Shown here in pieces: positions 1 through 54,514 of a DNA stretch of 64,000 nt (the stretch's first letter is position 1; each line of letters starts with the position of its first letter). The notes under the pieces are model-generated. The model was not told where the DNA came from, did no database searches, and saw only the letters and a list, made by a program, of their open reading frames with translations. This DNA comes from Acidobacteriota bacterium (GTDB lineage Bacteria; Acidobacteriota; Vicinamibacteria; Vicinamibacterales; 2-12-FULL-66-21). Location: positions 11,968 to 75,967 of the forward strand of contig JBKPSH010000021.1 in the NCBI GenBank assembly GCA_046734955.1, read 5' to 3'. A program made the position numbers and the translations under genes.

Positions 1-1403
<1,403 letters not shown>

Positions 1404-1409
<6 letters not shown>

Positions 1410-2284: not shown

Positions 2285-2382
<98 letters not shown>

Positions 2383-2384
<2 letters not shown>

Positions 2385-5145: not shown

Positions 5146-5242
5146 TTCCGGGTTCCGTTACCCGGGTTCCGGGATCCGCGATCCGGGATCCGATCCGTGT
5201 TTCATCCGTGTTAATCCGTGGCCCGTGTTCATCCGTGATTAG
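5146..5242. repeat. composite GGATCC-module plus CCGTGTTNAT-module element
   Basis: Sequence is TTCCGGGTTCCGTTACCCGGGTTCCGGGATCCGCGATCCGGGATCCGATCCGTGTTTCATCCGTGTTAATCCGTGGCCCGTGTTCATCCGTG. It is near-identical to the reverse complement of 41741-41814 and fills the atpB-atpE spacer. Confidence 0.9.
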
Positions 5243-6051: not shown

Positions 6052-6290
6052 GGCGATGAGACGCGGACAGCACGGCTTGTGCCACCAGCGATCAATGGTG
6101 CAAAGCATCGCCGGCCACGGAATCCAATGACGACGCCGGAGCCGTCCGCCACGACCTCCCGGCGGCGCGCTCCGCTATGCCGTAGGTTCTCCGTGATAGC
6201 GGAGATGGACGACCGACGTTGAACCTCGGAGCCTCTGCCAAACCGTTGTCGTAGCTTCGATCTCGCCCGATCGACGGTGGCTGCCGACGC

Positions 6291-18351: not shown

Positions 18352-18392
18352 CCTGCGGCGGTGTTGCTGCTGGGTGTCAACGATCAATCTTC

Positions 18393-18421
18393 AATGATCA
18401 ATGTTGAATGCATTGATCATT
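18393..18421 (+). terminator. AT-rich hairpin downstream of the Anbu cluster (possible terminator)
   Basis: AATGATCAATG and CATTGATCATT form a perfect 11-bp inverted repeat with a 7-nt loop, 42 nt after the transglutaminase stop. The U-tract is weak (TTTCGTG). Confidence 0.35.
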
Positions 18422-23040: not shown

Positions 23041-23087
23041 CCGTGATCGACTGTTACAATCAGTTTCACTCGTGAAGTGTATTCCTT

Positions 23088-23141
23088 CCGTGTTTTTCCG
23101 TGTTCATCCGTGGTCCGTGTTTTTCGTGTTTATCGGTGGTC
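23088..23141. repeat. CCGTGTT-module tandem repeat
   Basis: CCGTGTTTTTCCGTGTTCATCCGTGGTCCGTGTTTTTCGTGTTTATCGGTGG lies directly upstream of the mltB start, in a single orientation. Confidence 0.8.
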
Positions 23142-28646: not shown

Positions 28647-28707
28647 CTTTTCTTTTCCCTTTTCCCTTTTCCCTTTTCCCTTTTACCTTTTACTTTTCCC
28701 TTTCCCC
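28647..28707. repeat. CCCTTTT heptamer tandem array
   Basis: About 8 units of TTTTCCC / TTTTACC lie between the convergent kinase genes, in a single orientation. The array overlaps the last 7 codons of the Ser/Thr kinase. Confidence 0.9.
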
Positions 28708-31260: not shown

Positions 31261-31339
31261 CAGTTTCCAGTCTCCGGTTGCCAGTTTCCAGTTCTACACA
31301 CCGCACGACTGGGAACTGGATACTGGGGAACTGGGAACT
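31261..31339. repeat. CAGTTTC-word inverted repeat element
   Basis: The left arm is CAGTTTCCAGTCTCCGGTTGCCAGTTTCCAGTTC, followed by a 13-nt loop, and the right arm is CTGGGAACTGGATACTGGGGAACTGGGAACT. It lies in the divergent ppiB/blaI spacer. Confidence 0.85.
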
Positions 31340-37242: not shown

Positions 37243-37345
37243 CCTGAAATTGCTGATTGCTGAATTCTGATTGCTGAATTCGCCGAACGCGTCCGCGTTC
37301 GGCCTGTTTGTCTTTCAATCAGCAATCAACAATCAGCATTTTCAG
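37243..37345. repeat. TGCTGAT-word inverted tandem-repeat element
   Basis: The left arm CTGAAATTGCTGATTGCTGAATTCTGATTGCTGAATTC and right arm AATCAGCAATCAACAATCAGCATTTTCAG are reverse complements. They lie between convergent genes and enclose a GC hairpin. Confidence 0.9.
37282..37316 (+). terminator. rho-independent terminator nested in the TGCTGAT element
   Basis: GCCGAACGC-GTCC-GCGTTCGGC is a perfect 9-bp stem followed by CTGTTTGTCTTTC. It lies 41 nt after the ADOP permease stop. Confidence 0.7.
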
Positions 37346-40620: not shown

Positions 40621-40632
40621 TAAAGACCCGCA

Positions 40633-40689
40633 CCACGGATCCCGGATCGCGCACCAACGGATCCCGGATCCCGGTACAATTCACCAATG
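40633..40689. repeat. GGATCC-module repeat plus AATTCACC word
   Basis: CACGGATCCCGGATCGCGCACCAACGGATCCCGGATCCCGG is followed by TACAATTCACCAATG, where the ATG is the RidA-fusion start. Confidence 0.8.
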
Positions 40690-41766
40690 CCTGAAGTTGT
40701 CGAGAGCGGCCAGCTCATATACGTCAGCGGTGTGACTCCAACCGTCCGTGGAGACGTCCCAACTCAAACGCGGAACATTCTGGAGCAAGTGCAGCGATCG
40801 TTGGCGGGTGCGGGCTCGTCGCTCGATCGCGTCGTGTCGGTGCTCGTCTTCATACGCGCGGCGTCTGACTTTGGCGCGATGAACGATGCGTATCGCACTT
40901 TCTGGAAGGGCGCTTTTCCCACGCGGACCACCGTGGTCGTTGATCTTTCGGCACCCGAGACACTCGTCGAAATGTCGCTGGTCGCCGTTGCCGCTGCGGC
41001 CGATCGAACGATCGTCCATCCTCGCGATTGGGTAGAGTCACCCAGTCCTTACAGCTACGCCTTGCAAACCGGCGAGACTGTTTTTCTTTCCGGGCTGGTG
41101 TCACGAAACGGTCGTGACAATTCAGTGGTGACCGGAGACGTCGGACAGCAGACCCGCGTCATTCTCGACAATGCCGGCGAGCTGCTGCACGCGGCGGGAC
41201 TCTCACACGCGAACATTGTGGCATCACGTGTCTACCTTCCAGATGCGGCTTCCTTCGCGGCCATGAACGACGCATATCGCACGTACTTCCCGTCAGCTCC
41301 GCCGGCCCGAGCGACGATCCGTGCGGCGCTCGCGGGCCCGCAGTACTCGGTCGAGATCACCTTCATTGCCTCGTCGTCGTCACGCCACGCAATCACGGAA
41401 GGCCTGCCACCGAACTGGAACCTTCCGCTCAGTCCTGCGGTCGTTGCCGGCGATCGCGCCTACTTGTCAGGAGCACTTGGCAACGACGAGACGAATCGGG
41501 ACAACGCGGCGGCGCAGACGAAGGCGACACTGGAGAAGCTGCGCAAGACGCTCGGGTTCGTCGGTGTTTCACCCAGCGACGTCGATGAGGCCATCGTCTA
41601 CGTCACGGATCCGAAGAACCTATCGGCGATCGATCGCGAATACCGGTCGTTCTTCGGATCGCACAACCCGTCGCGAACGACCATCCGCTGCGGCCTGGTT
41701 GCGCCCGACGGATTGGTCGAGATCCTGCTGACGGCGAGACCACGGATAAACACGAACCACGGATGA
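40687..41766 (+). CDS. triple-domain RidA/YjgF/TdcF family protein (three tandem RidA modules in one chain)
   Basis: 359-aa ORF with three consecutive ~115-125-aa units. Each carries the RidA pattern: ...(L/V)(Y/F)(V/L)SG..., a ...MN(D/E)AYR..F... segment and P.R(T/A)T(V/I). The units span roughly residues 1-103, 104-230 and 231-352. Confidence 0.8.
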   Translation: MPEVVESGQLIYVSGVTPTVRGDVPTQTRNILEQVQRSLAGAGSSLDRVVSVLVFIRAASDFGAMNDAYRTFWKGAFPTRTTVVVDLSAPETLVEMSLVAVAAAADRTIVHPRDWVESPSPYSYALQTGETVFLSGLVSRNGRDNSVVTGDVGQQTRVILDNAGELLHAAGLSHANIVASRVYLPDAASFAAMNDAYRTYFPSAPPARATIRAALAGPQYSVEITFIASSSSRHAITEGLPPNWNLPLSPAVVAGDRAYLSGALGNDETNRDNAAAQTKATLEKLRKTLGFVGVSPSDVDEAIVYVTDPKNLSAIDREYRSFFGSHNPSRTTIRCGLVAPDGLVEILLTARPRINTNHG

Positions 41767-41814
41767 ACACGGATAAACACGGATCGGATCCCGGATCCCG
41801 GACAACGGATCCCG
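41741..41814. repeat. composite CCGTGTTNAT plus GGATCC element (reverse orientation of 5146-5242)
   Basis: Sequence is CACGGATAAACACGAACCACGGATGAACACGGATAAACACGGATCGGATCCCGGATCCCGGACAACGGATCCCG. It spans the RidA-fusion stop and the annotated DUF523 start. Confidence 0.9.
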
Positions 41815-43164: not shown

Positions 43165-43247
43165 AACGCGCTACCCACTTCGATTCCGATCGCCCAACTC
43201 ATCGGCCAAATACGCGTAATTAACGCCATCACGAGCGGCTCAGCCGG

Positions 43248-43263
43248 TGGCACCCCGGTTGCT
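43248..43263 (+). promoter_or_regulatory. consensus-perfect sigma-54 promoter motif TGGCAC-N5-TTGCT
   Basis: TGGCACCCCGGTTGCT lies in the fdhD-PBP1A spacer, 17 nt upstream of ATG 43280. The leader would be very short, so function is uncertain. Confidence 0.35.
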
Positions 43264-43279
43264 CAAATCATCACTGCGT

Positions 43280-45508
43280 ATGGTGATGAGACGCAGCTTC
43301 GTGTTGACGGCCGTGCTCGCAGTGACGATCGCTGCGTGGTACGCAGGAATCAAGGCCGTCCTCGTCGCTGAGTCGATCGTCGATGAACTCGACCGCGCGG
43401 AGGTCCTGGCGAATCTGGCGCCTCGTCCGCAGACAACGATCGTATACGACCGGTACAATCGACCGGCCTTCACCTTTTTCATAGAACAACGCATTGCTGT
43501 TCCACTCGATCGCGTGTCGCACAACATGGTCGACGCCGTCCTCGCGGTTGAAGATCGCCGCTTCTTCTCGCATCACGGCATGGATCCGGTTCGCATCGCC
43601 GGCGCCGCCTGGAGAAACTTCCGTGCCCGCCGCATCATCGAGGGCGGCAGCACGATTACGCAGCAGCTCGCGCGTGCGTCACTCTCTTCGGAGCGAACCT
43701 ACGACAGGAAGATACGCGAGATCCTGTTGGCGGCGCAGATCGAACAGCGCTATACGAAAGCCCGGATCCTCGAACAGTACTTGAACACGGTCTACCTGGG
43801 CGACGGCTACTACGGCGTGGAGGCCGCATCCCAGGGCTATTTTGGAAAGCCGGCATCCGATCTCGATCCACACGAAGCCGCGCTTCTCGCTGCACTCGTC
43901 AGATCGCCGTCGAGCGATTCTCCATCGATTGCGCCGGCACGCGCACTGAAGCGTCGCAACCTGGTTCTCCGATTGATGTACCGCGAAGGACGGCTGTCCG
44001 ACGAGGGACTCCGAACCGCGAGCAGCATGCCACTGCCGCGAGGCGGACGTCATATCGACGACGCCGCAGCGGCGGCAACTGCGACCAACGGACCGGACTC
44101 CGGCCTGTATTTTCAGGAAGAGGTCCGGCGGCAGCTGTTTGCGTTGTTTGGCGCGGACAGAGTGCTCCGAGGCGGCTTACGTGTGCACTCGACCTACGAT
44201 CCTGAGTTGCAGCGGCAGGCTGAAGCGGCGGTCACTGGCCGAATCGCGGCGATCTCAAAGACTCGTCCGGCGGCACGCGATCTCGAGGCCAGTTTCGTCG
44301 CGATGGATCCAACGACTGGTGATATCCGCGCGCTGGTAGGAGGACGAGACTTCAAGGCCAGCAGCTTCAATCGCGCAACGCAGGCGCATCGCCAGGCCGG
44401 CTCTGCGTTCAAGCCGATCATCTATGCCGCAGCGATTGAGCGCGGTTATTCGCCCGGAACGCTGCTGCACGACCTGGACACGCCAATTGCGGCCGGTGAC
44501 GAGACATGGCTTCCATCCGGGGGCCACGAGGAGCCCGAATACACGCTCCGCGCCGCGCTCAAAACCTCGAGCAATCGAGCGGCCGCCCAACTGCTTCAGC
44601 AGATCGGCGTCAGCGCTGCGGTGTATTACGCGGAGCGGCTCGGCATCGAATCGCAGTTGCCGTTGGTTCCATCGCTGGCGCTCGGCACTGGTGAAGTGAC
44701 GCTGCTCGAGTTGACGACGGCGTATACGGCATTTGCGAATCGTGGAAGTGTCGCGGCGCCTCGATTGATCACGCGGGTTGATGATGGTTCCGGCGCAACG
44801 ATTTTTAGCGCAGCCGAACGTCACACGCAGGCGATCAGTGCGACCACCGCCTATCTGATGTCGAGCATGCTCTCGGACGTGATCTCGAGCGGAACCGGCT
44901 CGTCAGCGCGCTCGGCCGGTTTCAAACTACCGGCTGCCGGCAAAACGGGAACGACCGACAACTACGCCGACGCATGGTTCATCGGGTACACGCCTCACCT
45001 CGTCGCCGGAGTCTGGTTCGGTCTCGATCAACCCGCGCCGATCATGCGCGGCGGGTTCGCCGGGATCGTCGCCGCGCCGGTGTGGGGCCGGTTCATGAAA
45101 GCGGCCACTTCGCACGACAAAGCCGACTGGTATCCAATGCCGCCGGATGTGGAGAAGGTCGCTATCTGCCGGTTGAGCGGCGCGCGAGCGACCGAGGCTT
45201 GCAGACATCAGGGTGAGATGTACACGGTCACCCGCGCCGATGGCTCGGCTCAGTTTGTTCCGACCAACGGCATGTTCGATCAGGATGACGCCGCCACTGT
45301 GCAAGCATCGAATGAGCCGCCAGTGTACGAGGACCTGTTTGCGGTCGGCACCGTGCCGCCTGACATTTGCCCGATTCACAATCCCACCGCACCCGGCGCT
45401 GGTATCGCGTCGGCGGCCCCCCCTGCCGTCGATGCATCTGACATAGTGCTCGAACGTGTGGTTGGCACCGACGGGCTCATGCATGTCGTGATGCGACAGC
45501 GACGTTGA
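43280..45508 (+). CDS. class A penicillin-binding protein (PBP1A family: glycosyltransferase plus transpeptidase)
   Basis: ORF 43247..45508. The GT51 motif is EDRRFFSHHGMDP...GGSTITQQLAR. The transpeptidase motifs are SAFKP, SSN and KTGTT. The start is set at ATG 43280 (MVMRRSFVLTAVLAV) because 43248-43263 looks like a promoter. GTG 43247 remains possible. Confidence 0.9.
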   Translation: MVMRRSFVLTAVLAVTIAAWYAGIKAVLVAESIVDELDRAEVLANLAPRPQTTIVYDRYNRPAFTFFIEQRIAVPLDRVSHNMVDAVLAVEDRRFFSHHGMDPVRIAGAAWRNFRARRIIEGGSTITQQLARASLSSERTYDRKIREILLAAQIEQRYTKARILEQYLNTVYLGDGYYGVEAASQGYFGKPASDLDPHEAALLAALVRSPSSDSPSIAPARALKRRNLVLRLMYREGRLSDEGLRTASSMPLPRGGRHIDDAAAAATATNGPDSGLYFQEEVRRQLFALFGADRVLRGGLRVHSTYDPELQRQAEAAVTGRIAAISKTRPAARDLEASFVAMDPTTGDIRALVGGRDFKASSFNRATQAHRQAGSAFKPIIYAAAIERGYSPGTLLHDLDTPIAAGDETWLPSGGHEEPEYTLRAALKTSSNRAAAQLLQQIGVSAAVYYAERLGIESQLPLVPSLALGTGEVTLLELTTAYTAFANRGSVAAPRLITRVDDGSGATIFSAAERHTQAISATTAYLMSSMLSDVISSGTGSSARSAGFKLPAAGKTGTTDNYADAWFIGYTPHLVAGVWFGLDQPAPIMRGGFAGIVAAPVWGRFMKAATSHDKADWYPMPPDVEKVAICRLSGARATEACRHQGEMYTVTRADGSAQFVPTNGMFDQDDAATVQASNEPPVYEDLFAVGTVPPDICPIHNPTAPGAGIASAAPPAVDASDIVLERVVGTDGLMHVVMRQRR

Positions 45509-45515
45509 ATCCCTT

Positions 45516-45709
45516 ATCACTAATCACTGATCGCGAATCACTAATCCTCGAATCCTCGAATCCTCGAATCCTCGAATCTCGAATCCTCGAATCGTGAATC
45601 CTCGAATCCTCGAATCGTGAATCCTCGAATCCTCGAATCGTGAATCCTTCAATCCTCGAATCGTGAATCCTTCAATCCTAGAATCCTTGAGTCCTGGAAT
45701 CCTTGAAGT
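45516..45709. repeat. left arm of the cassette: 17-nt terminal repeat plus about 22 tandem AATCCTCG / AATCGTG units
   Basis: ATCACTAATCACTGATC (45516-45532) is followed by (AATCCTCG)n with a higher-order 23-nt unit AATCCTCGAATCCTCGAATCGTG. It ends 2 nt before the four-helix-bundle stop. Confidence 0.9.
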
Positions 45710-45711
45710 CG

Positions 45712-46107
45712 TTATTTGGGCAAGCCGTGCGATCCTCGGTCATCCCAGTCCGAGCGCCGAAGGTATTTGATAAAGCCTCCAAGCATCTTGCCGAGCTCCT
45801 CGCCGTTTGTCAGTTGCGGCTTCAACTGGTCCTCTGAGATGTACTTCTTGAAATACGCCTGCTTCAACCGCGTCAGGACTTCGGCGAGCGATGCTTTTGA
45901 ATGGGTCAGAAAGTTTGCAAATGCCCTGTCGGTTCCCTGTTCAAAGCCTTCCACCATATTCGACGTGATCGAGTCATTGGCATTGGAGATCTGTTCGTGT
46001 AAACGTCGATTTGTGCGTAGGCGCGGTGACTCGAGGATTGCATTTACTGCGCTCCAGAACGCTACCGCCTTGTGATAAATGGGCAATTCCTCAATTTTGT
46101 TCGCCAT
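45712..46107 (-). CDS. four-helix-bundle protein (23S rRNA intervening-sequence protein family)
   Basis: ORF 45712..46125, with the probable start at Met 46107. The sequence MANKIEELPIYHKAVAFWSAVNAILE...SNANDSITSNMVEGFEQGTDRAFANFLTHSKASLAEVLTRL matches the family pattern I know (…SI.SNI.EG…F.. FL..A.GS..E…). Confidence 0.8.
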   Translation of the reverse strand: MANKIEELPIYHKAVAFWSAVNAILESPRLRTNRRLHEQISNANDSITSNMVEGFEQGTDRAFANFLTHSKASLAEVLTRLKQAYFKKYISEDQLKPQLTNGEELGKMLGGFIKYLRRSDWDDRGSHGLPK

Positions 46108-46144
46108 GACTGCCACATGGCGCACAGCTCATGCCAGCGAGTTG

Positions 46145-46237
46145 CGATTCAACGATTCGACGATTCAGGGATCAGCGATTCAGGGATGAGCGATTCAGGG
46201 ATTAGCGATTCAGGATGAGTGATCAGTGATTAGTGAT
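46145..46237. repeat. right arm of the cassette: GCGATTCAGGGATNA tandem units plus the 17-nt terminal repeat
   Basis: Four units of about 15 nt, GCGATTCAGGGAT(C/G/T)A, are followed by GATCAGTGATTAGTGAT (46221-46237). That 17-mer is the exact reverse complement of 45516-45532. Confidence 0.9.
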
Positions 46238-46621
46238 TGAGCGAATCGCCAGCGTGAGCGCGAGAACCGCGTTCGCGACATGTCCCGTCCAGCAAATCCG
46301 GCATTGCAGTCCGCGGGAGATGAGGCTCCATCCGAGAAACGCGCTCATCGCAACCGCGGGAAGCGTCATCAGGAACAGCCAGAATGGCGGCCAATCACGA
46401 AGCAACCCGACTGCGAGTACCACATACAGCATCACGCCGAGCAATGCGTTCGGGACACCAAGGAGCGAGGCACGGGGAGTTCGGAAGAGGACCGCGCAGC
46501 CGCCGTGTTCGAGCTGGCAGACTTCCGGACCGGTGAGCCACGCGGGCAGCACGAGGTAGTGGCCGTATAACGCGGCGACCGAGGCTGCCATTCCCGCCGC
46601 CAACGCAATCCAGACAATCAT
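46223..46621 (-). CDS. vitamin K epoxide reductase (VKOR) family membrane protein
   Basis: This is the C-terminal 132 codons of ORF 46223..47224, starting at Met 46621. It has 4 TM helices, loop cysteines CQLEHGGC, the motif LGVPNALLG and a CxxC (CRIC) in the last helix. Confidence 0.7.
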   Translation of the reverse strand: MIVWIALAAGMAASVAALYGHYLVLPAWLTGPEVCQLEHGGCAVLFRTPRASLLGVPNALLGVMLYVVLAVGLLRDWPPFWLFLMTLPAVAMSAFLGWSLISRGLQCRICWTGHVANAVLALTLAIRSITNH

Positions 46622-46635
46622 CTGAGATCGCGTGG

Positions 46636-47478
46636 CTAGAGCCCCGCCCTCCCGGCGCTCTGGCATTTTGGGCACCAGTACGTGAGGCGGGCGTCTCCGC
46701 CCTGTTTGCGAATGCGGATTGGAGTTCCGCAGCGACGACAGGGGAGCCGCGCGCGGCCGTAGACCCACAAGCGATCGCTCGGATCGCCGCGGCCCGTCGT
46801 CCGCCGCAATCCACCATACGTTGTCATCAGCTCGAGCCCTTCCGAGACATTCAGCGTCAGCACTCGGCGGCTCTCCTCGACGATTGACGTCAGGTCGGCT
46901 TCCGTCAGTTCCGCAACCCGCGCAAATGGATTGACGCGGCACATGAACAGGATCTCGGACTTGTAGACGTTGCCGAGTCCGGCGAGGACATGCTGATTGA
47001 GGAGAGCCTCGGCAATGTCCCAGCCCGATCGCTCGCGGAGGTTTGCAATCACCTTCCCTGAGTCGAAGCTGTCGGCCAACACGTCGGGCCCGAGCGTCCG
47101 CAACTCGCGGCTCTTCGTGACCTCTCTTTCCGAGAGGAACTCGGCGACAGGGATGTTGAAAGCAACCGCTTCGAAGTCCGCCGTCGCAATCACCACACGC
47201 ATATCGCGACGCGCGCGCTGCCACTTTTCCCCGCGACGATAGATGTGCCAGCTGCCATTCATGCGCATGTGCGTGCGCAGCACGAGATCGCCGGAAAAGT
47301 GGATCAGAAGATGTTTCCCCGTCGAGTGAACGCGTTCGATGGTGCGTCCGGCAATCGGCGCGTCATCGTTGATACGGTTCAGCGCGGGAAACATCGATTC
47401 AAACGCCGTGACTGGCTTTCCCGCCAGCGCGCGATGGAGTGTGCGTGCGGCGCGGAAGATTGTATCCCCTTCAGGCAT
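46636..47478 (-). CDS. nei: Fpg/Nei family DNA glycosylase (Nei2-like)
   Basis: 280-aa ORF with an N-terminal MPEGDT (catalytic Pro2) and a C-terminal zinc finger CRRCGTPIRIRKQGGDARLTYWCPKCQ. It overlaps the lhr stop by 8 nt. Confidence 0.85.
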   Translation of the reverse strand: MPEGDTIFRAARTLHRALAGKPVTAFESMFPALNRINDDAPIAGRTIERVHSTGKHLLIHFSGDLVLRTHMRMNGSWHIYRRGEKWQRARRDMRVVIATADFEAVAFNIPVAEFLSEREVTKSRELRTLGPDVLADSFDSGKVIANLRERSGWDIAEALLNQHVLAGLGNVYKSEILFMCRVNPFARVAELTEADLTSIVEESRRVLTLNVSEGLELMTTYGGLRRTTGRGDPSDRLWVYGRARLPCRRCGTPIRIRKQGGDARLTYWCPKCQSAGRAGL

Positions 47479-52649: not shown

Positions 52650-52719
52650 TTGCTGATTTTCGTTGCTGATTGCTGATTGGGTCCGATCAATCAGCAATCA
52701 GAATTCAGCAATCAGCAAT
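52648..52719. repeat. TGCTGAT-word inverted tandem-repeat element (second copy)
   Basis: AATTGCTGATTTTCGTTGCTGATTGCTGATTGG, a 5-nt loop, then ATCAATCAGCAATCAGAATTCAGCAATCAGCAATT. It fills the spacer between the convergent small ORF and ftsH. Confidence 0.9.
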
Positions 52720-52720
52720 T

Positions 52721-54514
52721 TCAGCGCTGCGCGCCGGATTCTTCGAGCAGCGTTTTGATTTCGTCCGCCTCGAGCGATTCCTGCTCGAGCAGCGCCTCGG
52801 CAAGTGCCCGCATCGGCTCCCTGTTGCGCTCGATCACGTGTCTGGCGTGATCGTATGCGTCCATCACGATCTTACGAATCTCGTCGTCAACCCGCTGAGC
52901 CGTCGCTTCGCTGACTGTATGCGGGCGATCGGTCTGGAATGCGTTCCCGGGCTTCCGATACGCGAGAGGGCCGAGAGCGGACATTCCCCACTCGCATACC
53001 ATGTGCTGCGCGATCTCGGTGGCGCGCTCGATGTCGTTCGACGCGCCGCTCGTCATGTGATTCATGAAGAGTTCCTCGGCGACGCGCCCGCCCATGAGCA
53101 CCGCGACCTGCGTGTCGAGATACCCCTTGGTGTAGGTATGGCGATCGGCTTCAGGCAGCTGCATCGTCACGCCCATCGCGCGACCGCGCGGAATGATCGT
53201 GACTTTATGCAGCGGGTCGGCATTCGGCAGAAGGGCCGCGACGATTGCGTGGCCGGCCTCGTGATACGCGCAGTTGACGCGGTCGAGTTCGCTAAGCGCG
53301 ACCGATCGCCGCTCCACACCCATTAGCACTTTATCGCGTGCTTCGGAAAGATCCGCGTCGGTGACGCGATCGCGGCCGCCGCGCGCCGCGAACAGCGCCG
53401 CCTCGTTGACGACGTTGGCCAGGTCCGCGCCGGAGAAGCCAGGCGTTCCGCGGGCGATGGACCGAAGATTTACCGCCGGGTCCATCGTCACGCGGCGGGT
53501 ATGGACGCGGAGAATCGCTTCGCGCCCCTTCAAGTCAGGATTACCGACCGTAACCTGGCGGTCGAACCGGCCAGGACGGAGGAGCGCCGGGTCGAGAATG
53601 TCCTGCCTGTTCGTGGCGGCGATGACGACGATGCCGACGTGGGACTCGAAACCATCCATCTCGACGAGCAGTTGGTTGAGCGTCTGCTCGCGTTCCTCGT
53701 GACTCAGCGAGTTGCCGCCGCGGCTGCGGCCGACCGCATCGAGCTCGTCGATGAACACAATGCAGGACTTGTGACGGCGCGCATCGCGGAAGAGACGACG
53801 AACGCGCGCGGCGCCGACACCCGCGTACATTTCGACGAAGTCGGACCCGCTCGCGAACAGGAAAGGCACGCCGGCTTCACCGGCAATCGATCGCGCGAGG
53901 AGTGTTTTGCCGGTGCCCGGCGGGCCGACGAGCAGGATGCCTTTCGGTATCCGTCCGCCGATTGACGAAAATCGGTCCGGGTGCCGGAGGAAATCAACGA
54001 TCTCTTTGACTTCATCCTTTGCTTCGTCGACACCGGCGACGTCCTGGAACGTGACGACCGTGTCGCCACGTTCGGCAACGCGAGTCCGGCCCGAGTTTGG
54101 AATCCGGCCGGCGGTCGTCCGATACACTGTGAAGCCAATCAGCGCGAAAAATGCGGCGACCGTCAGGATCATTCCGTAGCTGAGCGCCTGCGGATCCGAA
54201 AGCGGATTTACCTCAACGCGCACGTTGCGTTTGACCAGGTCGTTGATGAACGACGAGTTCGCCGACAGGAACTCTGTCGGCGCGACTGTCTGCAGTGTCT
54301 GTCCGTCGCGTAGCGTCACCTGAATATCGCGCTCGCCGAAGGTCACCTTGGCAACGGCGCCGCGGTCGACCTGCTGGAGGAACTCGGACAGCGCGATCGC
54401 CGCAGGTTCAGGCGCGCGCTTGAGATAGATGGTGGCCGGTACCGCGCACACAGCGAGGATGGCGACAATCGCCACGACCAGAAAACGAGGACGTCGGAAG
54501 CGCGGTGGCAACAC
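52721..54514 (-). CDS. ftsH: ATP-dependent zinc metalloprotease FtsH
   Basis: 597-aa ORF with a GTG start. Motifs are Walker A GPPGTGKT, Walker [12 protein letters not shown] ...[18 protein letters not shown] and zinc site HEAGHA. Confidence 0.96.

Follow-up and report, generated by a model that had tools for sequence, protein, structure and literature searches.

Between the convergent 3' ends of a PBP gene and an lhr-nei-VKOR operon, in a window of 64,000 nucleotides (by which is meant the whole stretch of DNA that was analysed), lies a compact cassette in which a single gene for a four-helix-bundle (4HB) protein is bracketed by long inverted arrays of short tandem repeats. The reading favoured here, at a probability of roughly 0.55, is that this cassette is a foldback element of the intervening sequence (IVS) type, mobile over evolutionary time, that took the place of a terminator hairpin. 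It would consist of a conserved 4HB gene and the gene's own sigma-54-type promoter-like motif, nested between inverted arms of 7-8-nt repeats.

The origin of rRNA IVSs, and the role of their conserved open reading frame (ORF), have been debated since the early 1990s. The 4HB family is large and spans many phyla, and a single genome often carries several members; to our knowledge the family has no known function outside diversity-generating retroelements (DGRs). Tandem arrays of period 7 are a recognized but puzzling feature of bacteria. The comparative data described below, from a set of about 100 relatives overall, tie these subjects together.

Organization of the cassette

The cassette starts immediately past the PBP stop codon (Table 1). 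A first-pass annotation, made from the sequence alone, had described a perfect 17-nt inverted repeat enclosing two imperfectly complementary tandem arrays (about 22 units on the left and four units of ~15 nt on the right), with one gene, of the 4HB family, between them. All of these elements were recovered: the two 17-nt copies are exact reverse complements, TRF resolves the left array at period 8 with 21.2 copies and the right array at period 15 with 3.6 copies, and a repeat search gives an arm-to-arm complementarity of 73-79% over stretches of 52-67 nt. Matches to the 17-mer with up to 3 mismatches, sought over the whole window, are confined to the two cassette termini (5 observed versus 0.07 expected). 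Its perfect 17-nt termini, together with arms 100-200 nt long, give the cassette the terminal inverted repeats of MITE/foldback elements, and the G+C content of the cassette (~50% inside versus ~62% outside) is below that of its surroundings.

Table 1. Coordinates of the cassette, its parts and its flanking genes in the window
Feature	Position	Strand	Details and basis
PBP gene	43247-45508	+	PF00912 + PF00905; stop TGA at 45506-45508
Cassette (putative IVS-type foldback element)	45509-46243		one copy in the window
3' arm (downstream of 4HB gene)	45509-45711	-	TRF, repeat search, MFE pairing with 5' arm
Terminal heptamers, 3' arm	45508-45546		AATCACT (+ strand) x5.6; TRF
17-nt terminal inverted repeat, left copy	45516-45532		ATCACTAATCACTGATC; perfect
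Octamer array, 3' arm	45543-45707		AATCCTCG, period 8, 21.2 copies; TRF
4HB protein gene	45712-46107	-	131 aa; PF05635/TIGR02436 profile matches
Sigma-54-type -24/-12 promoter-like motif	46122-46136	-	TGGCATGAGCTGTGC (GG-N10-GC); sequence motif
5' arm (upstream of 4HB gene)	46144-46243	-	TRF, repeat search, pairing with 3' arm
8/15-nt GATTC-type array, 5' arm	46144-46214		8-nt array at 46144-46213; TRF
Period-15 array within the 8-nt array	46161-46214		3.6 copies; TRF
Terminal heptamers, 5' arm	46200-46238		GATTAGT (+ strand) x5.6; TRF
17-nt inverted repeat, right copy	46221-46237		exact reverse complement of ATCACTAATCACTGATC
VKOR last codons and stop	46223-46240	-	S-I-T-N-H-*; read from array terminus

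Searches for features of other kinds returned little. An Rfam search of 45000-46800 found no rRNA or other family, its sole match being a chance low-complexity miRNA below the gathering score, and the window contains no 23S rRNA gene. Neither sigma-70 promoters nor intrinsic terminators were found in a scan of 45300-46500, the PADLOC defence models gave no match, and no transposase or recombinase lies in the cassette or beside it; we know of no transposase partner for a 4HB cassette.

Long-range pairing of the flanks, on which the first-pass proposal turned, is significant. The minus-strand RNA of 45500-46250 folds at -272.4 kcal/mol, compared with -233.1 +/- 5.8 for shuffled controls (z = -6.8), with 84 base pairs between the 5' and 3' flanks in the MFE structure, and the two arms cofold at -150.7 versus -104.5 +/- 4.4 when one arm is shuffled. 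The complementarity score between the flanks is 77, against self-complementarity scores of 18 and 16, so that each flank holds a single arm. A G:U wobble bias on the sense strand was sought in the arms of 55 loci and is absent (64 transitions in the sense and 85 in the antisense direction, with 190 transversions); since most changes are transversions and the transitions are not skewed toward the sense strand, there is no RNA-strand signal, and selection on the stem at the RNA level lacks support. Within the Vicinamibacterales subfamily, an arm pairs nearly as readily with an arm of another locus as with its own partner, and locus-specific covariation of the arms is accordingly weak (permutation p = 0.02).

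Between the 5' arm and the ATG sits a motif with the form of a sigma-54 promoter (GG-N10-GC, TGGCAC-N5-TTGC-like, at a fixed distance from the gene). In the subfamily, TGGCAYR-N4-NTGC precedes the ATG by 13-15 nt at 16/16 loci, and the window contains only 2 strict matches on both strands (128 kb of sequence); a metagenome scan with the 17-nt promoter string gave 3 real copies among the 120 matches listed. We infer from these features that the motif acts as a promoter and depends on sigma-54, in which case transcription would start near 46110, with a leader of ~3 nt. As the promoter-like motif is internal, the 5' arm would be absent from the gene's own mRNA. The first-pass annotation had also considered an RNase III-processed module that releases the 4HB mRNA from the operon transcript; the conserved motif, lying after the 5' arm, weakens the case that such processing is required.

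The four-helix-bundle protein

The product of the only gene between the arrays exceeds the cut-offs of both family profiles (64.5 bits against 33.8 for PF05635, and 70.2 bits against 24 for TIGR02436). Its AF2 model (pLDDT 89.9) has four helices, at residues 9-32, 34-55, 60-86 and 92-118, and Foldseek matches this model to 2GSC (TM 0.82/0.91), to 2RLD (TM 0.70/0.83) and to 4DWL. The closest solved structures, 2GSC and 2RLD, contain five chains each. The predicted fold resembles those of Xcc0516, BT_0352 and the DGR accessory protein Avd (4DWL, 8UB7), in agreement with the fold relationship to Avd that had been proposed at the outset. Within the motif S-x3-N-x2-E-G, residues S46, N50, E53 and G54 are invariant in the alignment; where the published family motif, GxxRxxxSxxxNxxE (PMC3936711), has R, the window protein has N. 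The protein is basic (pI 9.2).

Judged from its coding sequence, the gene is under purifying selection: dN/dS is 0.04-0.12 in closer pairs and reaches 0.21, with a median over all pairs of 0.12. Recent horizontal transfer of the gene is not supported, its dS being near or modestly below that of its neighbours (0.48 versus 0.68-1.0 in one comparison and 1.24 versus 1.23-1.43 in another).

Filled and empty sites among relatives

Profile matches confirm the neighbours that had been named for the cassette: the PBP gene lies on one side, and the minus-strand genes for VKOR, Nei and Lhr lie on the other; FdhD is a further neighbour. The claim that the right terminus supplies the stop and last codons of VKOR also holds, the ...SITNH* terminus being read from the array. 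Empty PBP/VKOR junctions, which would be expected if the cassette had been inserted, were found among relatives: the junction is filled in the window and in L211, and empty in L212, L216, L217, L228, L230 and L262. L212 is a close relative (Nei 80% and PBP ~80% identical), in which the VKOR stop is followed by 14 nt and the PBP stop; a small native hairpin is present there and arrays are absent. PBP ends in ...VMRQRR* at filled (window, L211) and empty (L212) sites alike, whereas the C-terminus of VKOR reads ...GVRAVSGAI* in the empty L212, ...GLRLNH* in L211 and ...AIRSITNH* in the window. At this single site, comparison of the filled with the empty state indicates that ~35 nt were replaced, native hairpin included, and no target-site duplication was found.

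Close homologues in the Vicinamibacterales repeat the arrangement, with AATC-type arms upstream, GATT-type arms downstream and the promoter-like motif in all 16, which are spread over at least 10 genomic contexts. Like rRNA IVSs, the cassette is sporadically present among close relatives. At the ThyX/Def junction, arrays together with the gene occur in L003, L005, L006, L007 and L291, and arrays alone in L091. Two otherwise identical cassettes are distinguished by one array unit; on such comparisons the arms can be shown to change through unit slippage, and their likeness to each other appears to be maintained at the level of DNA.

The same 17-mer terminates arrays of this type at many Acidobacteriota loci. 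Its recurrence elsewhere had been raised by the first-pass annotation, and it proved to be wide, at the termini of the same array type: in one related metagenome-assembled genome (MAG) the exact 17-mer occurs at 11 loci, versus a single gene-bearing locus, and in the window's own genome one copy (a pair of termini) was found within the available 64 kb. Array-only hairpins are far commoner than gene-bearing ones; the loops of AATC-type foldbacks contain a 4HB gene or are empty, and no remnants of the gene or of the promoter motif were found in array-only loops. The suggestion of a mobile IVS-like element that can insert outside rRNA therefore stands as regards presence and absence at orthologous sites and occurrence in many contexts, whereas the target-site duplication and the mobility enzyme that might have accompanied it were not found.

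The arrangement across the protein family

For 78 diverse members of the 4HB family, drawn from many phyla, the flanks of the gene were compared with those of 133 neighbouring genes and with cross-locus pairs of flanks. The inverted-flank score exceeds the threshold for 63% of the 4HB genes, compared with 6% of the neighbours and 5% of the cross-locus pairs (Mann-Whitney p = 1e-15), and complementarity is greater between than within flanks in 44 of 51 loci. Tandem repeats, mostly of period 7 or 8, are 9-fold enriched in 4HB flanks. The repeat unit varies by locus, differing even between two paralogues 1.3 kb apart (L104), and its sequence does not follow protein similarity. Of 68 4HB genes with co-directional neighbours, 66 share their orientation (p = 2e-17), and 0 of 80 diverse loci lie inside rRNA. 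In this broad set, no sigma-54-like motif was seen by eye. On the strength of these comparisons, PF05635 genes as a rule come packaged within a repeat hairpin, across phyla and in ordinary operons, with the 4HB unit gained and lost between genomes. No published description of a 4HB gene in a tandem-repeat hairpin outside rRNA was found.

Comparison with known systems

The ORF-bearing 23S IVSs (of Coxiella burnetii, Leptospira, Brucella and Haemophilus) have their protein family in common with the cassette. The Coxiella IVS has a sense-oriented S23p ORF and a 28-bp stem whose 5' arm includes 3-4 tandem heptamers, and RNase III cuts it at the first repeat; the number of heptamers varies among strains (PMC4990558). 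The Coxiella ORF is decaying. The likeness in layout to an ORF-bearing rRNA IVS, first remarked on from the size and order of the parts, is borne out by this published element. In both, complementary termini pair into a stem whose loop holds the ORF, the ORF is sense to the host transcript (the 4HB gene being on the strand of lhr-nei-VKOR), the 5' arm holds tandem heptamers of variable number, the G+C content is below that of the host, the distribution is sporadic, and a pre-existing hairpin loop is replaced (rRNA IVSs substitute for tetraloops of rRNA helices). There are also differences. The cassette lies between protein-coding VKOR and PBP rather than in helix 9, 25 or 45 of 23S rRNA, its arms are 100-200 nt of 7-8-nt arrays as opposed to a 28-bp stem, a sigma-54-like promoter motif is part of it, and its gene is under purifying selection. 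An old hypothesis, cited in PMC4990558, holds the rRNA IVS to be mobile and assigns its ORF a part in the movement.

Other repeat-bracketed elements invite comparison. REPtrons consist of a RAYT gene flanked by inverted REPs, and the REP is also present in many gene-less intergenic copies, often at gene ends. The cassette resembles REP/BIME elements and REPtrons in having a single gene bracketed by an inverted repeat with many gene-less copies, and differs in encoding a four-helix bundle without the HUH/Y1 nuclease fold and in having arrays of arbitrary units instead of a conserved palindrome. MITEs and foldback transposons have long terminal inverted repeats made of short tandem units, many gene-less copies and insertion polymorphism, all of which are seen for the cassette; in contrast to them, no target-site duplication was found for it, and the sequence of the arms varies among members of the family.

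Heptamer arrays have been reported with the unit TAACTGA in Beggiatoaceae, Cyanobacteria and Bacteroidetes (PMC4679880), and with GGGAATC in Xanthomonas and GGGGAYT in Nostoc (PMC4692102). Such arrays (including the cyanobacterial STRR-type) are, like those of the cassette, of period 7, intergenic and often in convergent inverted pairs. Most of them are gene-less, and neither paper draws a link to the 4HB family; the Xanthomonas table nevertheless places one array over the start codon of XCC0516 (PMC4692102), which is itself a 4HB protein.

Alternative explanations and proposed mechanism

An incidental juxtaposition, in which a stand-alone 4HB gene happens to lie between two repeat-decorated spacers, had been offered as a caveat from the start, and the premise that this genome often decorates its spacers is sound: at least 10 other arrays occur in the window, gene-less hairpins among them, and in array-dense genomes many genes fall between oppositely oriented arrays. 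Chance placement is nonetheless very improbable here, being contradicted by the single arm in each flank, by the recurrence of the same arrangement in all 16 homologues at different sites, and by the excess of inverted flanks in the family at large (63% versus 6%). Descent from a DGR, with the 4HB gene as its Avd, is scarcely credible. The fold is shared, but the protein scores 17.8 bits with the Avd equivalog model NF033474 (cut-off 80), no adjacent reverse transcriptase accompanies it, and the Avd identity was rejected. DGRs have a reverse transcriptase and a template/variable repeat pair, and the first-pass annotation's statement that the window has neither agrees with what surrounds the cassette: its neighbours (PBP, VKOR, Nei, Lhr and FdhD) have all been identified and none is a reverse transcriptase, none appears in the Pfam-labelled related loci, and the arrays are simple tandem repeats. 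A cis-regulatory role for the arms, as DNA or RNA sites bound by a pentameric 4HB protein (autoregulation) or as the activator region of a sigma-54 promoter, with slippage in copy number tuning expression of the gene, also seems quite unlikely. The upstream array is positioned about where sigma-54 activators bind, ~10 to 115 nt ahead of the promoter-like motif, unit number is polymorphic among otherwise identical cassettes, the structural relatives 2GSC and 2RLD are pentameric, Avd is a nucleic-acid-binding component of the DGR RNP, and the protein is basic; yet a unit that is neither conserved across the family nor tracks protein similarity argues against sequence-specific binding, the broad set shows no sigma-54-like motif by eye, and neither the complementarity of the downstream to the upstream arm nor the array-only copies would be explained.

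It is fairly unlikely that array hairpins arise at gene ends beforehand, as terminator-like foldbacks of host or independent origin, and that the 4HB gene and promoter then move between them by recombination or gene conversion through the arms, which would themselves not be co-mobile. Foldbacks that share these termini but consist of arrays alone are common (11 loci against one bearing the gene in the MAG noted above), the ThyX/Def junction occurs with and without the gene, loops of the AATC type hold the 4HB gene or nothing, subfamily arms from different loci match each other nearly as closely as arms of one locus and so could recombine, and no target-site duplication was found. At the VKOR/PBP junction of other lineages (L218 and L235), moreover, unrelated array hairpins are present, so the arms could be host features older than the gene. 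Against this, the unit differs from locus to locus, even between the L104 paralogues, which excludes family-wide shared pads; the closest empty site, in L212, is entirely without arrays; and no array-only version of the VKOR/PBP junction, with identical termini and AATC arms, was seen in the closest relatives.

If the cassette is instead an IVS-type foldback element, the unit would have replaced, in an ancestor of the lineage, the small native hairpin between the convergent VKOR and PBP stops, and the insertion, by comparison with relatives, would have rewritten the last five VKOR codons. In read-through RNA from lhr-nei-VKOR, the arms would pair into a stem of ~84 bp, which, by analogy with the stem of an rRNA IVS, most likely serves as a duplex for processing or termination. 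RNase III cleavage is known for the Coxiella IVS, and by the same analogy the stem is a probable RNase III substrate. Such a stem would insulate the host genes and substitute for the lost hairpin, and the internal promoter could give the 4HB gene an mRNA of its own with almost no leader. The 23S rRNA IVS would then be the rare case that chanced to be found first.

A bolder extension, speculative and unlikely, would make PF05635 proteins the protein part of a widespread, hitherto unrecognised class of hairpin-seeking foldback elements, of which the 23S IVSs are a special case; these elements, or gene-less derivatives of them, would account for many of the heptamer arrays (STRR, TAACTGA, GGGAATC) found across bacterial phyla, and the protein would act directly on the repeat hairpins, in their binding, maintenance or propagation.

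Implications

Until now, the packaging of an ORF in a hairpin had been described only for insertions in rRNA genes, including those of fastidious pathogens; questions about IVSs become testable in Xanthomonas campestris (XCC0516), Bacteroides (BT_0352), Flavobacteria and Nostoc. There are consequences for annotation as well, for as the junction sequences indicate, the arms of the cassette give neighbouring genes stop codons and C-terminal residues. As a separate observation, the ATG within the TGGCATG motif is sometimes annotated as the start of the 4HB gene.

Anatomy of the cassette

The four-helix-bundle (4HB) gene of the window is enclosed by arms that the first-pass annotation had described as ending in a perfect 17-nt inverted repeat and as containing imperfectly complementary tandem arrays, and everything described there is present. 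Near-matches to the 17-mer across the whole window are confined to the two cassette termini (5 matches versus 0.07 expected), and Tandem Repeats Finder recovered a symmetric layout of arrays. The arms are 73-79% complementary across 52-67 nt. When the minus-strand RNA of 45500-46250 was folded, an energy of -272.4 kcal/mol was obtained versus -233.1 +/- 5.8 for shuffled controls (z = -6.8), with 84 base pairs joining both flanks; an arm-arm cofold reached -150.7, versus -104.5 +/- 4.4 when one arm was shuffled. The G+C content of the cassette is approximately 50%, down from approximately 62%.

The cassette lies between a plus-strand class-A PBP gene and the minus-strand genes lhr-nei-VKOR, and the final codons and stop of VKOR (SITNH*, window 46223-46240) are indeed encoded by the array terminus, as had been proposed. 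Host reading frames frequently end in this way (...I-T/P-N/D-H-stop, also at related loci L027, L045, L061, L065, L074, L091 and L112), with the AATCACT array terminus as the coding source; stop codons occur in all frames within the arrays, and the C-termini of adjoining genes are rewritten.

Coordinates of the cassette and of other array structures (window positions unless a related locus is named)
Feature	Coordinates	Strand	Description
Terminal inverted repeat (17 nt), left	45516-45532		ATCACTAATCACTGATC
Terminal inverted repeat (17 nt), right	46221-46237		exact reverse complement of ATCACTAATCACTGATC
Outermost heptamers, left	45508-45546		AATCACT x5.6
Outermost heptamers, right	46200-46238		GATTAGT x5.6
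Inner octamer-type array, left	45543-45707		AATCCTCG x21.2
Inner array, right	46144-46214		8/15-nt GATTC array
4HB gene	45712-46107	minus	clear PF05635 and TIGR02436 member
Second strict sigma-54-like match	6070-6084	minus	TGGCACAAGCCGTGC
VKOR/PBP junction hairpin, other Acidobacteriota	L218 4700-4850		AAACTTC/GAAGTTT arrays
VKOR/PBP junction hairpin, other Acidobacteriota	L235 4740-4860		CAGCTCT/AGCTGAC arrays
Gene-less hairpin of inverted heptamer arrays	2285-2384		CAGTTTC/AACTGGC
Gene-less hairpin of inverted heptamer arrays	31261-31339		CAGTTTC/ACTGGGA
Gene-less hairpin of inverted heptamer arrays	37249-37338		ATTGCTG/CAATCAG
Gene-less hairpin of inverted heptamer arrays	52663-52725		TTGCTGA/CAATCAG
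Second array family	5146-5237; 23086-23141; 40629-40674; 41739-41814		GGATCCC heptamers, CACGGATAAA decamers
Short-unit array at gene end	1369-1406		AATTCACC x4.8
Short-unit array at gene end	28652-28707		CTTTTCC x8
Short-unit array at gene end	18377-18410		TCAATGA x3.9

The AF2 model of the encoded protein (pLDDT 89.9) contains four helices and superposes on Xcc0516 (2GSC, TM 0.82/0.91), BT_0352 (2RLD) and Avd (4DWL). This agrees with the suggested fold shared with Avd, but the protein does not pass the Avd equivalog model. Its sequence is under purifying selection (dN/dS 0.04-0.12 for closer pairs). As a matter of speculation, a basic 4HB pentamer might bind the repeat hairpins.

Inverted arrays across the 4HB family

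A pattern scan yielded 80 diverse 4HB loci from Bacteroidota, Nitrospirota, Planctomycetota, Cloacimonadota, Chloroflexota, Proteobacteria, Patescibacteria and other phyla, none of which (0 of 80) is located in rRNA. For each gene, the 250-nt upstream flank was aligned with the reverse-complemented 250-nt downstream flank. Of 78 4HB loci, 63% exceeded an inverted-flank score that 6% of 133 neighbouring genes at the same loci and 5% of pairs taken across loci reached (Mann-Whitney p = 1e-15); the earlier caveat that the association of 4HB genes with repeats could be incidental does not survive this comparison. In 44 of 51 loci the flanks were more complementary to each other than either was to itself, and the 4HB gene therefore sits inside one hairpin, not between two.

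Tandem repeats are enriched 9-fold in these flanks (2.30 versus 0.25 per kb), with periods of 7 (58 arrays), 8 (20 arrays) and doubles thereof. The repeat units are locus-specific (GGTTTCT, TATTGAG, CCAGATG, AGTGATG, TTGGATT, GGGATAA and others), and are distinct even at two paralogues 1.3 kb apart. On Nostoc and Riemerella replicons, genes annotated by RefSeq as four helix bundle protein are arranged in the same way. Where the neighbours are co-directional, the 4HB gene is co-oriented with them in 66 of 68 cases (p = 2e-17 versus random insertion).

Related loci assign the window to Vicinamibacterales (phylum Acidobacteriota). Sixteen homologues (47-94% identity; L001-L012, L291, L294, L295 and L323/L382), spread over at least 10 genomic contexts, were compared. 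AATC-type arrays opening with AATCACT-like heptamers lie 5' of the gene and complementary GATT-type arrays, with GATTAGTGAT-like heptamers last, lie 3' of it; at L012 the unit is GTCGCT/AGCGAC instead, with the inverted layout unchanged. Past the upstream arm, every homologue locus also carries TGGCAYR-N4-NTGC (GG-N10-GC), whose end lies 13-15 nt ahead of the ATG, and the strict pattern has only two matches in the whole window on both strands. A simple hairpin is ruled out for this motif because its last base is variable. The motif carries the signature of a sigma-54 -24/-12 promoter, and its predicted activity as such would produce a leader of about 3 nt. The sole other strict match in the window sits 19 nt 5' of an ATG opening MEHGLSQSAVEIARPFGFPITNSM..., where the leader would again be very short. 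Gene callers take the ATG within the TGGCATG motif as a start codon (L294 3001, L295 3001), resulting in gene models of 142-143 residues versus a protein of about 131.

Gain, loss and change at orthologous junctions

An empty PBP/VKOR junction was found in a close relative, the SMAG_U15588 MAG (Nei 80%, VKOR 85% and PBP approximately 80% identical to the window), where 14 nt separate the stop codons of VKOR and PBP, arrays are absent and a small native hairpin (GTGGCGCGATCT-AAA-GATCGCGGCCAC) occupies the site; the 4HB cassette of that MAG is at another site (L001). The window and L211 carry the cassette in the exact place of this hairpin, with the PBP stop kept, the last five VKOR codons replaced and no target-site duplication visible between filled and empty sites. 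The junction is also empty in 5 more distant relatives, and in 4 others it holds unrelated array structures, which in L218 and L235 are clear inverted hairpins. Foldbacks unrelated to the cassette, either array hairpins or a long palindrome, are seen at this junction in L220 (4820-5150) and L223 (3740-3830) as well as in L218 and L235. Foldback structures evidently concentrate at this convergent junction.

At a second convergent junction (ThyX/Def), arrays and gene are present in 5 genomes, and in L091 the arrays form a hairpin without the gene, around a loop of about 20 nt. Two cassettes, L291 and L292 (3396-3615), are identical over 1050 nt without substitutions and differ by one extra 15-nt unit, from which we conclude that arrays change by slippage. 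Unit number likewise differs between same-site, same-protein cassettes in L323 versus L382 and L001 versus L302. For the 4HB gene, dS values are close to those of the adjacent genes or modestly lower, and its relocation is thus old rather than a recent transfer.

A proposed IVS-type element and its main rival

The comparative evidence, including the insertion polymorphism found where a native hairpin lies, supports the proposal of an IVS-like mobile element outside rRNA, and we infer that the unit behaves as a foldback element of the IVS type, settling at sites occupied by hairpins. When transcribed by read-through, the long imperfect stem, probably a target of RNase III, would serve as a double-stranded structure for processing or termination and keep the host genes insulated, and in the Vicinamibacterales subfamily the gene would be expressed from an internal sigma-54-type promoter. 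The arm mismatches are devoid of sense-strand G:U bias and the promoter-like motif is positioned inward of the 5' arm, both of which speak against a role in RNA alone; DNA is therefore the more likely level at which the arms are kept alike.

The main rival to co-mobility of arrays and gene, which fits the present data too, is that the arrays came first and that the 4HB gene then moved between them via recombination through the arms. Gene-less foldbacks that share the cassette termini, with the 17-mer recurring at their ends, are common (11 loci in one MAG), and a search of their loops recovered no remnant of the 4HB gene or the promoter motif.

The likeness to an ORF-containing rRNA IVS had been proposed from the layout. 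In the Coxiella 23S IVS, the terminal stem measures 28 bp, tandem GACAGAT heptamers (3-4, varying with the strain) lie upstream of the S23p start, RNase III cuts at the first of them, the ORF is sense-oriented and the G+C content is below that of the host (PMC4990558); tetraloops of rRNA helices are also replaced by IVSs. All of this has its counterpart in the window cassette, except for the location in rRNA and the cleavage demonstrated in Coxiella. The ORF-bearing rRNA IVS, a known kind of element, is in this way extended to ordinary intergenic sites.

Catalogues of heptamer arrays, some of them convergent inverted pairs, exist without an explanation for Xanthomonas, Nostoc, Beggiatoaceae, Cyanobacteria and Bacteroidetes (PMC4692102, PMC4679880); the Xanthomonas supplementary table lists, without comment by its authors, a GGGAATC x4 array that covers the start codon of XCC0516, whose 4HB product has been crystallised. 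PF05635 genes have been noted within cas operons (PMC3936711). Full-text literature searches yielded no description of 4HB genes within inverted arrays, and the family-wide link with inverted short-unit tandem arrays is revealed here.

Arrays and foldbacks without a 4HB gene

Several gene-less hairpins and short-unit arrays at gene ends occur elsewhere in the window. The hairpin at 37249-37338, between convergent genes, encloses a GC-rich stem and a T-run and is terminator-like. The GGATCCC family is found at 4 gene boundaries in both orientations, and two direct copies bracket an L-PSP-domain gene (40687-41766). In a MAG labelled Ruminococcus bromii (CAVEMF01; L015, L018, L022, L024, L040, L042, L092, L119), AGTGATC/GATCACT array elements with a conserved core (CAGGGCGCATTTG...) crowd the contigs, look MITE-like and fill many intergenic spacers, for example in L022.
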